Assembly: GCA_965140785.1 (NCBI GenBank)
Contig: OZ223493.1
Span: forward strand, 1-37,938
DNA length: 37,938 nt
From: an uncultured Ruficoccus sp.
GTDB taxonomy: Bacteria > Verrucomicrobiota > Verrucomicrobiia > Opitutales > Cerasicoccaceae
Direction: 5' to 3'
A program made the position numbers and the translations under genes. A model generated the notes under the pieces. That model saw only the letters and a program-made list of their open reading frames with translations, was not told the DNA's origin and searched no databases. Every line of letters begins with the position of its first letter. Position 1 is the first letter of the stretch. Positions 12,097 to 18,347 of the stretch are shown here, one piece after another.

Positions 12097-12136
12097 GGGC
12101 CTATAGCTCAGCGGTTAGAGCAGGGGACTCATAATC
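12097..12136 (+). repeat. Left att core, orphan 5' half of tRNA-Ile2
   Basis: GGGCCTATAGCTCAGCGGTTAGAGCAGGGGACTCATAATC is identical to 18271-18310 and diverges just after the anticodon loop. Confidence 0.95.
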
Positions 12137-12262
12137 GTAAACGGGCATTTTCGCTCACTTTTTCAGCAATCATCACGCGTCGTCAAATTGCTGATTGAAA
12201 GCGCCTTACACTCCCCTACCCGTCATCCCAAATCCTCACCGATCCGCCCATTTTTCAACCTC

Positions 12263-12354
12263 GGGTTACAAAGCCGGGTTACAAATTGGATTAAGGGAGC
12301 AAAATCAAACGGCTCCAGTTTTGGGAGTTTTTTGTAACCCGCGTGGGTTACAAA
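12263..12354. repeat. Four GGGTTACAAA copies, putative integrase arm-type sites
   Basis: Direct copies at 12263-12272 and 12276-12285; inverted pair at 12331-12340 and 12345-12354. Confidence 0.8.
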
Positions 12355-12356
12355 TT

Positions 12357-12420
12357 TTCTAACGTCTAGATGTGGCGAAGGCGTGCTAGGACGCGTTACC
12401 TACCTGTAAGCGTGTTAGCG
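12357..12420 (-). other. attC-like recombination site downstream of the cargo gene
   Basis: Minus strand CGCTAAC...GTTAGAA, 64 bp, with complementary CTAAC/GTTAG ends and an inner GCGT-N6-ACGC hairpin, 3 nt after the stop codon; L-box pairing is imperfect. Confidence 0.35.
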
Positions 12421-12423
12421 TTC

Positions 12424-13281
12424 CTAGGAATAGATTACATTACGTAAGCAATCATCAAATTCACGCTTACTGTCAAAAAACTTTGGCACGCTTGAGTTCT
12501 CTACAATATATTTTGAAAACTCTTCTTCCATCTCCGGGAACGCAATCTTTCGTCCCTCACGTCCAAAGTGATCAATTGCCCTGCTAAAGGCTTCCCGCAT
12601 AGCAGAAATAACTTCTTCATCGTAGTGAATCATTTTTCGGGAACGACTATGTAGCATGTCATTTCTGTCCCTCTTATCTCTCATCACCATGAATCTCTTT
12701 AACTCTCTTAACTCTTCTATTATAAAGTCTTCCTTGGAAACTTCCGTTGTCTCCAACTGAGCAACATGAAACTTTCCAAAGTGTTTAAGAAAAGTCGTAT
12801 ATGAAGGATCAGTAGTCGCCTTTTTATAGGTCGCTTTAATCTTTTCAGTCAAAGATTTCTTGAATTCAACGATTTTGTTGAAGCGAAGATCCCTAGGATA
12901 CTCTAAGTGTTCTATTGGGGAAGTATCAAAAGAATATGTTGTTGCATCATCCTTTACGATAATCGTCGGCTTGTCAAAAGCGAGACGGATACCGAGCTCA
13001 AACATTACATTCGGATTCTTTCCACTAACATCACAAACAACGATTGGATTATCGTATAAATTCTGAATAATCCTCTTCTGGATTATACCGACATCATCAG
13101 AGTCGCTGACTAGATTTGCTTTGAATTCTGAATCACCAATTGCTTCTGTGAGGATAAGCTTAACATCCAACCAATGTTGCTCTGTGCAATCATCAATTGA
13201 TGATATAGGCATCACAAGGCCACACTTGAGCATTGCTTTCCCTTTCTCAGACTCAACATTACTTTCAACTTTTTTAGTCAT
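12424..13281 (-). CDS. Nucleoside 2-deoxyribosyltransferase (NDT)/TIR-like domain protein with helical C-terminus, candidate defence effector
   Basis: CGLVMPIS...IVVCDVSGKNPNVMFELGIRLAFDKPTIIV; strongly AT-rich compared with the flanks. Confidence 0.72.
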   Translation of the reverse strand: MTKKVESNVESEKGKAMLKCGLVMPISSIDDCTEQHWLDVKLILTEAIGDSEFKANLVSDSDDVGIIQKRIIQNLYDNPIVVCDVSGKNPNVMFELGIRLAFDKPTIIVKDDATTYSFDTSPIEHLEYPRDLRFNKIVEFKKSLTEKIKATYKKATTDPSYTTFLKHFGKFHVAQLETTEVSKEDFIIEELRELKRFMVMRDKRDRNDMLHSRSRKMIHYDEEVISAMREAFSRAIDHFGREGRKIAFPEMEEEFSKYIVENSSVPKFFDSKREFDDCLRNVIYS

Positions 13282-13329
13282 AAACCAAAATCATTAAATT
13301 ACTAAAAACCATTAATCATGGCATGCCCA

Positions 13330-13461
13330 TCAATCGCCCTTCTTGTGCTTGTGGGGCTTGAGTGACGGGGTGTTTCCGGGAGTTTTTTTGTTATCGCGCT
13401 GGCGGCGATCAGGTTTTCCGGTTGATTCAGCTATTCTCTTGGGACCTGGCTTAATGCCCAT
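13330..13461 (-). CDS. Small basic protein, 43 aa, below the ORF-track cutoff
   Basis: Hand translation: MGIKPGPKRIAESTGKPDRRQRDNKKTPGNTPSLKPHKHKKGD*; ends 48 nt upstream of the NDT-like gene on the same strand. Confidence 0.6.
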   Translation of the reverse strand: MGIKPGPKRIAESTGKPDRRQRDNKKTPGNTPSLKPHKHKKGD

Positions 13462-13551
13462 GGTTTTTACTTATTTTAGGGGTTCAAGCAATGCGATAGG
13501 GTTAACACGCTAGATCTATAAATACTTATTTTAACCTAGTAAAGGCATAAA

Positions 13552-16550: not shown

Positions 16551-16556
16551 ACCGCA

Positions 16557-16585
16557 ATGCTGTATTACGGTAATTGTTTTGTCAA
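16557..16585 (-). promoter_or_regulatory. Toxin-antitoxin promoter/operator
   Basis: Minus strand TTGACA (16585-16580), 17 nt spacer, CAGCAT; palindrome ATTAC-G-GTAAT at 16564-16574 inside the spacer. Confidence 0.55.
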
Positions 16586-16609
16586 GTGAAGCTGCGCGAT
16601 TTGATCGGC

Positions 16610-17098
16610 TCAATAGAATTCACGCTCCGGCACCTCAATATCAGCCAGCTCCAAAAGATGCCTGGCGAAAGCAACCATGTCAGCGGCTTCTTTTTTGTTT
16701 TTAGGTGACCAAAATCCATACTCAAAACCAGAGCCGGATCTATGGGCTTCAAAAGTCCAAGTCGAACCATCGACTCCACCCTTCGGGTAGTTCTTATAAA
16801 TACCAGGGAAGTCAATGGCACTGAATTGTTGGACAAGAGCGCTTGCTTCTTCCTCAGTCAGCTTTGTCATTGAATTCTTGGCTTCGCCCCAGTCATAGCC
16901 ACCTTTCCCCGAATAGATTTCCGTTTTTATCAGGAAGATGCCGTCTCTGGGGTAATTCCACACCGTAATGATGATCGGCGCATCAAACGTTCGGACCCAC
17001 GTAAATTTAATTTCCTGATACGGGTTATCGTCAGCCCGTAGAAGCGGCTGGAGGATGAAAAGGAACGCAAAGACGAGATAGAGGGCTTTCGTTTTCAT
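16610..17098 (-). CDS. Hypothetical exported protein
   Basis: Signal-peptide-like MKTKALYLVFAFLFILQPLLRA from the ATG at 17098; 162 aa. Confidence 0.7.
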   Translation of the reverse strand: MKTKALYLVFAFLFILQPLLRADDNPYQEIKFTWVRTFDAPIIITVWNYPRDGIFLIKTEIYSGKGGYDWGEAKNSMTKLTEEEASALVQQFSAIDFPGIYKNYPKGGVDGSTWTFEAHRSGSGFEYGFWSPKNKKEAADMVAFARHLLELADIEVPEREFY

Positions 17099-17111
17099 AC
17101 GGGGTACGGGG

Positions 17112-18179
17112 TTAGAGACGCTTCGCCATCTCGAAGGAATGGGTGTCGCGGAGGTGGCCGTAGGTTTTGGCGACGAGGAGGCCGCCGTCTTTATGGCCAA
17201 TCCATGCCGCTATCGTCTTAAAGTCCACCCCTTTCTCGATGGCGTTACTCACAAAGTAATGGCGTAGGCAATGGTGGGTGAAGTGCGGGAGCTTGGCCAA
17301 GGTGCAGGCGGTGCCGATGGCTTTTTTGGCGGACTCGATGGGAATGAGGCGTTCGTTGGAGCCGGGACAGCCTTGGGCCTGATAGAGGCCTTGCAGGAAG
17401 GCCGCCAGCGTGGGAAAGAGCGGGACGACGCGGACGAGGTGGTTTTTCGTGCCCACTTCCCCACCCGACACGGTGAAGCTGTTGCGCTCGAAATCGACTT
17501 CCCGCCAAATGATGTGCGTGGCCTCGCCGAGGCGCATTCCCGAGTAGGCCAGCAGCTTGACGAGGGGGATAGCGTTGCGGGCGCGCTGGTCGAGCTTTTC
17601 GAGGGTGACAAGCAGGGTGACAAATTCCGACTCAGAGGGAATGAGGATCGGCTTGTCCACGACGCGCTTGCGCTTGAGGGTCCGGGCGGGGCTATCCAGC
17701 AGCAGGCCGGAATCGACCGCGTATTGCAGGACGCCTTTGAGAACGATTAAGTCCTGATTGAAGGTTGAGGCGGCAATGCCCTTGCTGCGTCTAGCGGCCC
17801 AGGTCTCGCAGTCCTGCCGGGTCAGGCCGGTGAGGGTGGACGCACCAAAGGGTTTGTTCAGGCTCTTCAGGCAACGCCGGATGCGGTCCACGGAGGAGAG
17901 CTTGAGGTTGGCGGTGGCAATGGGAAACCAGCGCTGGCCCAGCTCAGCGAAAGTCAGGCCCCGGTCTGCGGTCGAAGTGCTGAGGCGGGCAGCCTGCTCG
18001 CGGAACTCCTTCAGGCGACGTTCGGCGAGTTTTCGGTCTTGAGTTCGCAGGGAACGCCGTATTTGCTTCCCGTTTCTTTTAACGAGCGCGTAATATGTTC
18101 CCGATGACACATTCCGGTAAAGGCACTCTGCTACCTTTACAAACGATGCTTGAGGCGTTTCTGCCTTGGGGTCGGACAT
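17112..18179 (-). CDS. Tyrosine recombinase/integrase
   Basis: YSGMRLGE (R), TKN (K), HHCLRH (HxxR), WIGH and KTYGH (Y); start at ATG 18179 preferred because the longer frame runs over the arm repeats. Confidence 0.95.
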   Translation of the reverse strand: MSDPKAETPQASFVKVAECLYRNVSSGTYYALVKRNGKQIRRSLRTQDRKLAERRLKEFREQAARLSTSTADRGLTFAELGQRWFPIATANLKLSSVDRIRRCLKSLNKPFGASTLTGLTRQDCETWAARRSKGIAASTFNQDLIVLKGVLQYAVDSGLLLDSPARTLKRKRVVDKPILIPSESEFVTLLVTLEKLDQRARNAIPLVKLLAYSGMRLGEATHIIWREVDFERNSFTVSGGEVGTKNHLVRVVPLFPTLAAFLQGLYQAQGCPGSNERLIPIESAKKAIGTACTLAKLPHFTHHCLRHYFVSNAIEKGVDFKTIAAWIGHKDGGLLVAKTYGHLRDTHSFEMAKRL

Positions 18180-18192
18180 GGCGGATTTCGTT

Positions 18193-18215
18193 GGGTTACA
18201 AAACGAGGTTACAAA
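18193..18215 (+). repeat. Two arm-type repeats, GGGTTACAAA and AGGTTACAAA
   Basis: 18193-18202 and 18206-18215; same 13-bp period as the left pair. Confidence 0.8.
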
Positions 18216-18270
18216 CGCGCAAAAACGAGCGCAACAACAATCTCGTAAGTCGTTTTTATCCAATTAATTT

Positions 18271-18347
18271 GGGCCTATAGCTCAGCGGTTAGAGCAGGGG
18301 ACTCATAATCCCTTGGTCCTCGGTTTCGAATCCGAGTGGGCCCACCA
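18271..18347 (+). tRNA. tRNA with CAT anticodon, most likely tRNA-Ile2 (lysidine type)
   Basis: Acceptor GGGCCTA/TGGGCCC, D-arm GCTCAGCGGTTAGAGC, anticodon loop CTCATAA, T-arm CTCGG/CCGAG, encoded CCA; resembles ileX-type genes; paired G1-C72 argues against the initiator; one extra T in the T-loop. Confidence 0.9.

Follow-up and report, generated by a model that had tools for sequence, protein, structure and literature searches.

A small tRNA-integrated element of an uncultured Ruficoccus sp. with a phasyl/inovirus-type Rep and a probable replication origin inside the rep gene

The element at the tRNA-Met(CAT) gene

We describe a small element integrated at a tRNA-Met(CAT) gene of an uncultured Ruficoccus sp. 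(Verrucomicrobiota). The analysed stretch of DNA (the window) comprises 37,938 nucleotides and is contig C22 of the source genome G000 (4.36 Mb, 50 contigs, 91% complete). Eight open reading frames (ORFs) are found between two attachment (att) repeats, all on the minus strand and all intact, and the element has a length of ~6.2 kb. Its genes encode an integrase (int), a secreted protein, the toxin–antitoxin (TA) pair VapB/VapC, a protein of 252 amino acids (aa), an HTH_17 excisionase (xis), a rolling-circle initiator of the HUH type (Rep) and a TIR-like protein of low G+C content (GC). The coordinates of the features and their family matches are presented in Table 1.

Table 1. Features of the element and of its integration site, with positions in the window
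Feature	Position	Strand	Description
Older integrase gene, remnant of its 5' part	12041-12085		Just outside attL; 80% identical to 18031-18075 within int
attL core	12097-12136	+	Displaced nt 1-40 of tRNA-Met(CAT); exact 40-nt match to 18271-18310
Left arm	12137-12423		Four GGTTACAAA arm-type repeats: 12264, 12277, 12331 (- strand), 12346
Cargo slot 1, TIR-like, 285 aa	12424-13281	-	PADLOC TIR effector PDLC00733 2.6e-7 (weak); phrog_3634 4.9e-17 (no assigned function)
rep, two-tyrosine HUH rolling-circle initiator, 354 aa	13552-14616	-	PF23343 (REP_ORF2-G2P); phrog_3419
Probable plus-strand origin inside rep	14471-14517	-	Hairpin, invariant core, A-rich stretch
xis, HTH_17/MerR-type excisionase-like, 148 aa	14613-15059	-	PF12728 3.2e-9; phrog_66 'excisionase and transcriptional regulator' 8.3e-7
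Backbone gene, 252 aa	15118-15876	-	G004 homologue 41-42% identical, same position
PIN toxin	15895-16317	-	PF13470 5.6e-7
AbrB/MazE antitoxin	16314-16613	-	PF04014 2.8e-7
Cargo slot 2, small secreted protein, 196-aa ORF	16610-17200	-	Signal-peptide-like stretch after M36
int, tyrosine integrase	17112-18263	-	PF00589 3.5e-14; phrog_1 1.9e-50
Right-arm GGTTACAAA repeats	18194-18215	+	Two direct copies between int start and tRNA
tRNA-Met(CAT), regenerated	18271-18347	+	ARAGORN; nt 1-40 (18271-18310) = attR core

Concerning the boundaries, attL and attR are identical at 40 of 40 nt, and the identity stops just past the anticodon loop, where positions 12137 and 18311 diverge. Upon integration the element itself supplies a new 5' half of tRNA-Met(CAT). 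According to ARAGORN this is the sole tRNA of the window; the source genome has three tRNAs with a CAT anticodon, this being one of them, and possibly it is of the lysidine-modified tRNA-Ile2 type, which its sequence resembles. The site shows the arrangement by which Islander recognises an island: an intact tRNA gene, a co-oriented displaced 5' fragment upstream and an integrase gene between the two. The 5'-half configuration is a known minority type, because 159 of the 3919 islands counted in the Islander survey have a 5' tRNA fragment (PMC4383910).

The integrase is most likely translated from M29 (18179), which gives 355 aa, as in the 94%-identical copy of a sister element in the congeneric genome G004. 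The stop codon of xis overlaps the start of rep (ATGA). The nonamer GGTTACAAA is present in six exact copies in the window, all of them in the two ends of the element (four left, two right); the expectation is 0.08 copies, and none of 100 shuffles reaches six. This distribution is the pattern expected of integrase arm sites, and the copies are regarded here as putative arm sites. Also, the segment 12137-12354 of the left arm is ~80-89% conserved in the G004 element despite the different adjoining cargo, and the left arm as single-stranded DNA folds better than shuffles (z -2.03, 3/200).

The initial annotation, made without database searches, had described 40-bp att repeats around a one-strand gene set of ~6.2 kb with a tyrosine integrase, an Xis-like HTH protein, a TA pair and foreign cargo. 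The exact 40-nt repeat and the eight co-oriented ORFs agree with this description, and the profile matches (PF00589, PF12728 and PF04014/PF13470) give the proteins the same identities. GC drops from ~0.62-0.65 in the flank containing draT and draG to 0.38 in the cargo (0.38-0.40 in the gene of the 285-aa protein). The annotation had recognised no capsid, Zot, coupling-protein or type IV secretion system (T4SS) gene, and in Pfam and PHROGs no ORF of the element matches capsid or other virion families, Zot (PF05707), coupling-protein or T4SS families; the ORFs to which it had given no function match no virion protein. A scan of the element for promoters and terminators gives matches that are no more numerous than in shuffles.

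The Rep protein and a probable origin inside its gene

Rep scores 37.1 bits against PF23343 (cut-off 27.8), with its relatives at 33-53 bits, and matches phrog_3419, 'rolling circle DNA replication initiation', with an E value of 3.8e-11. The HUH motifs which had been read from the translation are invariant in an alignment of 14 sequences: F126/T128/T130 (FxTxT), H173/H175 (HxH) and Y258/Y262 (YxxxY). An identity as an IS91/IS200 transposase was considered and rejected, those families being missing from the Pfam matches of Rep at E <= 0.01. RepSA (PF20199) gives 22.3 bits, under its cut-off of 34, and no NCBIfam model matches Rep.

Arp of the phasyl plasmids ('phasyl DNA replicon protein arp') is 41% identical to Rep across residues 97-339 (E 1e-52). 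The matching plasmid records number 36, all typed as non-mobilizable, and circles of 0.7-1.8 kb are found among the 15 of these 36 that are listed; in one plasmid of 1284 bp arp is the only annotated gene. Because of this arp-only plasmid and the small size of the Arp circles, a PF23343-type Rep and its origin seem to be enough to make a replicon. The phasyl was reportedly described in a paper in the EMBO J in 1988.

A structural model of Rep, built with the 14-sequence alignment, has a mean predicted local distance difference test score (pLDDT) of 75; residues 1-54 are predicted to be disordered (pLDDT < 50). The best match of the model in VIA-align is the Rep protein ORF119 of SIRV1 (Z 8.8, root-mean-square deviation 3.1, 111 residues aligned, within residues 107-269 of Rep). 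Other HUH domains score Z 6-7 and are intermixed with unrelated ferredoxin-like folds. Foldseek of the model against PDB gives no matches at E <= 0.001, and the Rep profile gives none among PDB sequences at E <= 1.

Concerning filamentous phages (inoviruses), the phage collection searched yields a single weak and partial match to Rep (E 3e-4). In IMG/VR, 13 contigs contain a Rep homologue (32-40% identity), and all 13 have genes for Zot and for a TspB-like adsorption protein; they belong to Neisseria-type filamentous phages. In a quick maximum-likelihood tree of 48 Reps, three Reps of Verrucomicrobiota inoviruses are found inside an otherwise integrase-linked clade (SH-aLRT 96), and those of proteobacterial inoviruses form the neighbouring clade. 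Integrase-linked and Zot-linked Reps are interleaved in this tree, and the integrase-linked ones also make clades of their own.

The candidate origin lies within rep, on the coding strand. It consists of the hairpin GGCGGC-GCA-GCCGCC (14517-14503), the core CTTCCTTGTC (14502-14493) and an A-rich stretch ending in AACAACTCAACCGA (to 14471). A search for shared DNA among seven Rep genes, whose proteins are 57-63% identical to that of the window except for the 90%-identical copy of the congener G002, found a 31-nt run which is exact in six of the seven and lies ~100-200 nt into the gene. Of 49 Rep genes (one a duplicate), 41 contain the 10-mer CTTCCTTGTC, encoding Leu-Pro-Cys, exactly and in frame. 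Of the other eight, four contain a copy that has one mismatch or lies 150 nt upstream of the called start, and four lack it (three genes of a short type and one further gene). The exact 10-mer is present across Verrucomicrobiota elements, Verrucomicrobiota inoviruses and Neisseria-type inoviruses; in the phasyl plasmids it is also in frame, exact in the Salmonella plasmid of 1284 bp and with a single mismatch in a plasmid of Pasteurella. In every copy all three codons end in T (CTT CCT TGT), and host genes mostly have a GC at third codon positions of ~0.7.

The hairpin is conserved as a structure. Among the 33 distinct 42-mers that precede the core, 29 hold a perfect stem of 6 bp or more closed by a 3-nt loop, and 25 of these 29 loops read GNA; the same type of hairpin is found in 7 of 694 other windows of those Rep genes. 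In 29 of the 33 cases no other 42-nt window of the gene is as stable as the upstream 42-mer, and the mean z of the upstream 42-mers against dinucleotide shuffles is -2.2. The stem sequences vary by lineage with pairing kept, for example GGCGGC/GCCGCC in the window versus GACGGC/GCCGTC in the relative G009. In the source genome the bare 10-mer is present in 26 copies, and the extended motif only in the element and in a resident inovirus-like prophage, the cores of the two Rep genes being identical at 30 of 34 nt. The spacer between rep and the adjoining cargo gene (13282-13551), considered as a single-strand origin, folds no better than shuffles (z 0.07).

Taken across these sequences, the hairpin and CTTCCTTGTC are probably the plus-strand origin of the whole Rep family. 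The Leu-Pro-Cys peptide is located in the tail of Rep which is predicted to be disordered, and we infer that its conservation is largely that of a DNA signal read through this tail. The record of phiX174 has the viral-strand origin at 4306 inside gene A, with CTTG immediately before the nick and an AT-rich stretch with AATAACA after it; the layout is like that of the element, but the two can be aligned only loosely. By this analogy the nick is predicted after the G of CCTTG. The listed results of a literature search for the 10-mer were all unrelated work.

Related elements, their cargo and the resident prophage

We used 61 related genomes of the order, 16 of which belong to the family of the window, to establish the distribution of the element. 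Rep homologues are found in 8 of the 61 genomes with the protein query and in 15 with the Pfam model, the latter including 12 of the 16 genomes of the same family. Eleven elements of 4.5-11.9 kb are delimited by repeats of tRNA fragments in seven genomes (two in G000, three in G001, and others in G002, G004, G012, G016 and G036), and each combines an integrase with an HTH_17 protein and a PF23343 Rep. A scan of species representatives adds 23 Verrucomicrobiota loci, 19 of them with a full-length Rep; its patterns were made from an alignment of eight integrase-linked sequences and are thus biased towards that clade. Fifteen of these 19 have an integrase within 9 kb, one has only an excisionase-like gene and three have neither, at least two of the three being near a contig end. 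A Zot-like gene is found at none of the 19 loci with purpose-built hidden Markov models.

The backbones and the cargo of these elements are combined in different ways. The element of G002 resembles that of the window in Rep (90%), Xis (91%) and VapBC (89-92%); its integrase is 54% identical, it is located at tRNA-Arg(TCT) and it has ~6 kb of other cargo. The element of G004 occupies the same 40-nt tRNA-Met site and shares the integrase (94%), VapBC (86-87%) and the 252-aa gene (41%). Its Xis has only 71 aa, of which the N-terminal 70 residues are 80% identical to the protein of the window, and its Rep is of the shorter type and its cargo different. Judging from these combinations, modules recombine between elements. 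The cargo of the relatives comprises PifA, AbiL, a ThsB-like TIR protein, a CBASS cyclase with a 2TM effector, MvaI/BcnI with Vsr and Dcm, Mrr enzymes and a type I-like restriction–modification (R-M) system; by gene content it is interchangeable, different in almost every element and largely anti-phage. The initial annotation had supposed a family in this lineage with a swappable cargo slot, and had proposed a search for integrase, excisionase and Rep at the same tRNA. Syntenic elements at tRNA genes of related genomes bear out the family, the G004 sister answers the search, and the cargo indeed differs on homologous backbones (G004; a wastewater contig).

Within the window's element, the ORF of 196 aa most likely starts at M36 (17095), giving 161 aa, and has no family match in Pfam, PHROGs, PADLOC or NCBIfam. 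In the wastewater contig 497 other letters replace 16587-17109, the region of this gene between int and vapBC with the 252-aa gene, and in the G004 element the 196-aa gene is absent and vapB directly follows int. Two metagenomes (wastewater and algal; contigs X1 and X2) cover the backbone at 90-95% identity, with neither cargo gene covered. Because cargo is swapped among these backbones, two variable slots can be distinguished, one after int and one after rep. The genes of VapB and VapC are adjacent with a 4-nt overlap, as in VapBC-type type II TA systems. The 252-aa protein matches no family in Pfam, PHROGs, PADLOC or NCBIfam, and the ESM Atlas places it in unnamed clusters only.

The integrases of the window's clade are all divergently oriented and adjoin the 5' end of a tRNA gene, the first 38-43 nt of which are duplicated. 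Their targets are tRNA-Met (the window and G004), tRNA-Arg(TCT) (G002), and tRNA-Arg(CCT) and tRNA-Leu(CAA) (G000); at the 5' halves of the last two, the paralogues in the source genome are 54-60% identical. The remaining members of the family have larger integrases (~416-457 aa) whose genes overlap the 3' end of their tRNA. The tRNA-Arg(CCT) site contains the second element of the source genome (C10:547468-556498, L136), with type I-like R-M and Mrr cargo, a Rep of the shorter type and no CTTCCTTGTC site. At the 5' half of tRNA-Leu(CAA) there is a 30-kb island with a 43-nt repeat and no Rep (G000:C25:46940-76977); it has an integrase (60% identical) and xis of the window's clade, and its cargo includes polysaccharide lyase, sulfatase and rhamnosidase genes between two identical rve-type insertion sequence copies. 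Two integrase–xis–Rep elements are present in tandem at one tRNA-Asn of G001 (L013; C1, ~3029500-3042100), with three copies of a 31-38-nt core; one of them contains AbiL and the other the ThsB-like TIR protein. A further island of ~27 kb in the source genome (G000:C10:608384-635654; L137, L138) is located at the 3' end of tRNA-Gly(CCC) with a 63-nt repeat. Its genes encode a tyrosine integrase, an HTH_17 protein, a PD-(D/E)XK nuclease, DUF932 and a DNA_pol_B_2 protein of 829 aa (PF03175, 9.5e-13), and it may be a pipolin-like self-synthesising element.

The tRNA-Met site has been used before. A remnant of an integrase like that beside attL of the window also flanks the G004 element, outside its attL, and upstream of tRNA-Met in G001 there is a longer one; this points to a site repeatedly used and cleared through integration and decay. 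No clean empty tRNA-Met site is found in the four congeners (G001-G004): G004 and G002 have it occupied (the G002 contig ends within int), G001 has the remnant, and in G003 a different tRNA-Met stands near draG. One Rep copy of G003 has an internal TAG. As to neighbouring genes, draT (PF07357, 1.6e-105) and draG (PF03747, 2.1e-62) are located directly upstream of the element (10193-11971) and an MgtC-family gene downstream (18473-18940). The linkage of draG to tRNA-Met is not conserved in G001.

The inovirus-like prophage of the source genome is apparently complete (G000:C39, ~265300-272200; L018 3300-10200), and syntenic prophages are present in G001 and G003. It contains genes for an RHH regulator, a 95-aa coat-like protein, pIII-like and pVI-like proteins, Zot and Rep, and is followed by low-GC cargo including a reverse transcriptase (L018:11645-12640). 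Its Zot is the only one in the source genome, and its Rep is 30-34% identical to that of the element. Like a filamentous-phage satellite, the element has its own initiator, no morphogenesis genes and an inovirus in the same host; it is not an Inoviridae prophage itself, as it has neither PF05707 nor any PHROG structural family. Zot is found in 10 of the 61 genomes, nine of these being among the 16 of the family, and in four of the seven genomes with delimited elements. The only non-Rep protein common to elements and prophages is an RHH-like segment of the G012 element (L011:6480-6902) and of the prophage locus (L018:4440-4901), 37% identical over 65 aa (E 1.4e-6); it is possibly a regulator common to elements and filamentous phages. 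The Pf phages were rejected as a model, since their initiator belongs to a different family, PF02486 (PMC4863604).

Concerning conjugation, no match to VirB4 (PF03135), VirD4 (PF02534), TrwB (PF10412) or AAA_10 (PF12846), the four families tried, is found in the source genome. Across the 61 genomes VirB4 is found in none and AAA_10 in none above the cut-off. No coupling-protein or T4SS gene is present in any delimited member of the element family. Three genes for PF03432 relaxases are located elsewhere in the source genome.

Among public sequencing runs, two from the same organism contain the window stretch, and the wastewater and algal metagenomes contain partial relatives. The joints 18075>18271, 18238>17711 and 18642>18329 were rejected as att joints; they trace to the internal repeat D2 (12041-12085 and 18031-18075) or to contig artefacts.

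Proposed replication and transfer, and comparison with known systems

Based on the anatomy of the window, the integrase and the excisionase would act through the GGTTACAAA arm sites and recombine the 40-nt core with the tRNA's 5' half. Excision would give a circle, on which Rep would nick the origin within its own gene, leading to rolling-circle replication and single-stranded circles. VapBC would stabilise the element, and the two slots would hold the exchangeable cargo. The element has no transfer genes and would therefore need an outside vehicle; the single-stranded circles might be packaged by a filamentous phage such as the C39 prophage. We thus read the element as a small rolling-circle replicon which integrates and excises and depends on some outside vehicle, filamentous-phage particles being the most likely one, and as one of a family of integrase–xis–Rep mini-elements in Opitutaceae and their Verrucomicrobiota relatives; we give this reading a probability of roughly 60%. 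Its core, an excisable and self-replicating integrative replicon, is very likely. The initial annotation had inferred an excisable, self-replicating integrative plasmid or a satellite that borrows a helper for transfer, and the findings support this inference. For the vehicle, a filamentous phage is our tentative choice at somewhat less than even odds, and unspecific routes are a little less probable. That the mini-elements are integrating satellites of filamentous phages, which ferry anti-phage systems by way of the helper's coat and export, have a nick site in common with the helper and spread in a lineage where no conjugation machinery was found, is an extension that we consider rather doubtful. 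As a corollary of this extension, the hairpin with CTTCCTTGTC would be an origin common to the 1.3-kb phasyl plasmids, the Neisseria-type inoviruses and these elements; with a common origin, Reps of helper and satellite may act on each other's origins.

Several observations weigh against this reading. Concerning excision, neither the joint of the circle (18270-core-12137) nor that of the empty site (12096-18311) is found in Logan contigs of four runs; as contigs drop rare forms, this result is uninformative rather than negative. Concerning the vehicle, no Zot match is found in G004 (98% complete), G016 (96%) or G036 (99%), no packaging signal was identified, and apart from Rep and the origin the element of the window and the prophage have nothing in common at the DNA or protein level; also, the shorter Rep type without the motif is found in three elements, among them the G004 sister and the second element of the source genome. 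Concerning the origin, the conservation of Leu-Pro-Cys could also be a protein constraint. The 42 nt upstream of the core in the window have a z of -0.97 against dinucleotide shuffles, so that support for the hairpin comes from comparing the sequences with each other; none of the 41 other 42-nt windows of the gene is nonetheless as stable as these 42 nt, and shuffle z scores are modest because the region is very GC-rich. The Rep tree has SH-aLRT support only, is rooted at its midpoint and carries long-branch warnings.

Other explanations account for part of the same evidence. The element could be a helper-independent integrative plasmid or defence island, in which Rep only prevents the loss of the circle and transfer is rare and unspecific, through transformation, vesicles or generalized transduction. 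Rep homologues alone sustain the phasyl-type plasmids of 0.7-1.8 kb (15 of 36 listed), all 36 being typed non-mobilizable; also in keeping with this explanation are the three of seven genomes with delimited elements and no Zot match, and the finding that the element shares no packaging signal and no other gene with the prophage. The tycheposons are a precedent for elements made of an integrase, replication genes and cargo (10.1101/2020.12.28.424599). Such a helper-independent element, however, leaves unexplained why its Rep is of the inovirus type and its origin core nearly identical to that of the resident prophage, and also how backbones of ~90-95% DNA identity come to be in wastewater and algal metagenomes and in several species, and we consider it unlikely.

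Transfer by conjugation would make the element an integrative and mobilizable element (IME), with Rep doubling as the relaxase, the origin as the origin of transfer and a conjugative element supplying the mating pore. The element does have its own integration and excision module and no mating pore, the three PF03432 relaxases indicate some mobilizable DNA in the source genome, and there is a streptococcal precedent, in which 118 of 144 elements have relaxases related to rolling-circle initiators, 35 of those without a coupling protein (PMC5704250). No VirB4, VirD4, TrwB or AAA_10 was found in the source genome, no VirB4 in the 61 relatives and no coupling-protein or T4SS gene in the delimited family members, and we consider this explanation very improbable. 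Hardly more credible is a decayed and immobile remnant of a tRNA-integrating filamentous prophage, or of another element, after the loss of its structural genes. Decay is seen in the integrase remnants at the same tRNA (12041-12085; G001) and in the internal TAG of the G003 Rep copy, and excision was not observed in contigs. Against a remnant stand the cores identical at 40/40 nt, the eight intact ORFs and the arm repeats at both ends; also, the same compact layout is found in many genera with intact att repeats and without any structural-gene fragment, and the integrase-linked Reps form clades of their own.

The element can be compared with several known systems. The phasyl plasmids of Enterobacteria and Pasteurellaceae have a related Rep core and the in-frame CTTCCTTGTC near the 5' end of rep, and in them Rep and the internal origin appear to be the whole replicon; unlike the element they are free circles without integrase, excisionase, TA pair or cargo. 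RS1 and TLC of Vibrio cholerae are filamentous-phage satellites which integrate by the host XerCD at dif, whereas the element has its own tyrosine integrase and is found at a tRNA. [quoted passage not shown] They resemble the element in the trio of integrase, excisionase and rolling-circle Rep at a tRNA, but the element has no Tra-like ORF or spread genes, and its RepSA match is below the threshold. The PF23343 inoviruses (Neisseria Nf/MDA-like contigs of IMG/VR and Opitutaceae prophages) have Reps 30-40% identical and the same origin core; unlike the element they contain Zot, coat and adsorption genes, and those of the IMG/VR set also an IS110-type transposase.

A precedent for the proposed mode of transfer is pDolos, a rolling-circle plasmid preferentially packaged by the Shewanella inovirus Dolos; the requirements for this are called simple by its authors (10.1101/2023.11.28.569023). 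Like the element it has its own rolling-circle Rep and no morphogenesis genes, and also an antitoxin-like gene (10.1101/2023.11.28.569023). It depends on an inovirus for its particles, as the element may, and unlike the element it does not integrate. The streptococcal IMEs combine a tyrosine integrase with an HUH protein of rolling-circle type, often with TA or R-M genes and without a pore, as the element does (PMC5704250). Their relaxases are Rep_trans/MobT, Rep_2 and PHA00330, whereas the Rep of the element is PF23343; most IMEs in the table of that review integrate at the 3' end of a gene and the element at a tRNA 5' half (PMC5704250). Their hosts also have conjugative elements, in contrast to the 61 genomes without VirB4 studied here. 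The tycheposons of Prochlorococcus, finally, share the layout of integrase, replication module and cargo at tRNAs, and their hallmark genes are reported to be enriched in vesicles and in screened viral-fraction libraries (10.1101/2020.12.28.424599). Their replication module is a primase, helicase or polymerase, whereas that of the element is an HUH Rep.

Each part of the element is already known, and it is their combination that sets it apart: a PF23343 Rep of phasyl/inovirus type with an internal origin, its own tRNA integrase on the rarer 5' half and defence cargo, in a host lineage where filamentous phages are found and T4SS genes were not. Literature searches returned no description of such elements in Verrucomicrobiota. 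The mobile elements of this phylum are little studied, and filamentous prophages are common in the family of the window. The transfer of genomic islands without transfer genes is an old question, which now becomes testable in Verrucomicrobiota. An integrase, an excisionase, a Rep with an internal origin and a cargo slot would make a minimal defence-carrying mobile element. The conserved origin offers a handle for experiments and for finding relatives in metagenomes, and the integrase clade with its 5'-half targets in four tRNAs (Met, Arg-TCT, Arg-CCT and Leu-CAA) may serve as a source of site-specific tools. If true, the filamentous-phage route would extend the short list of known inovirus satellites by a class that integrates and would link inoviruses to the spread of anti-phage systems.

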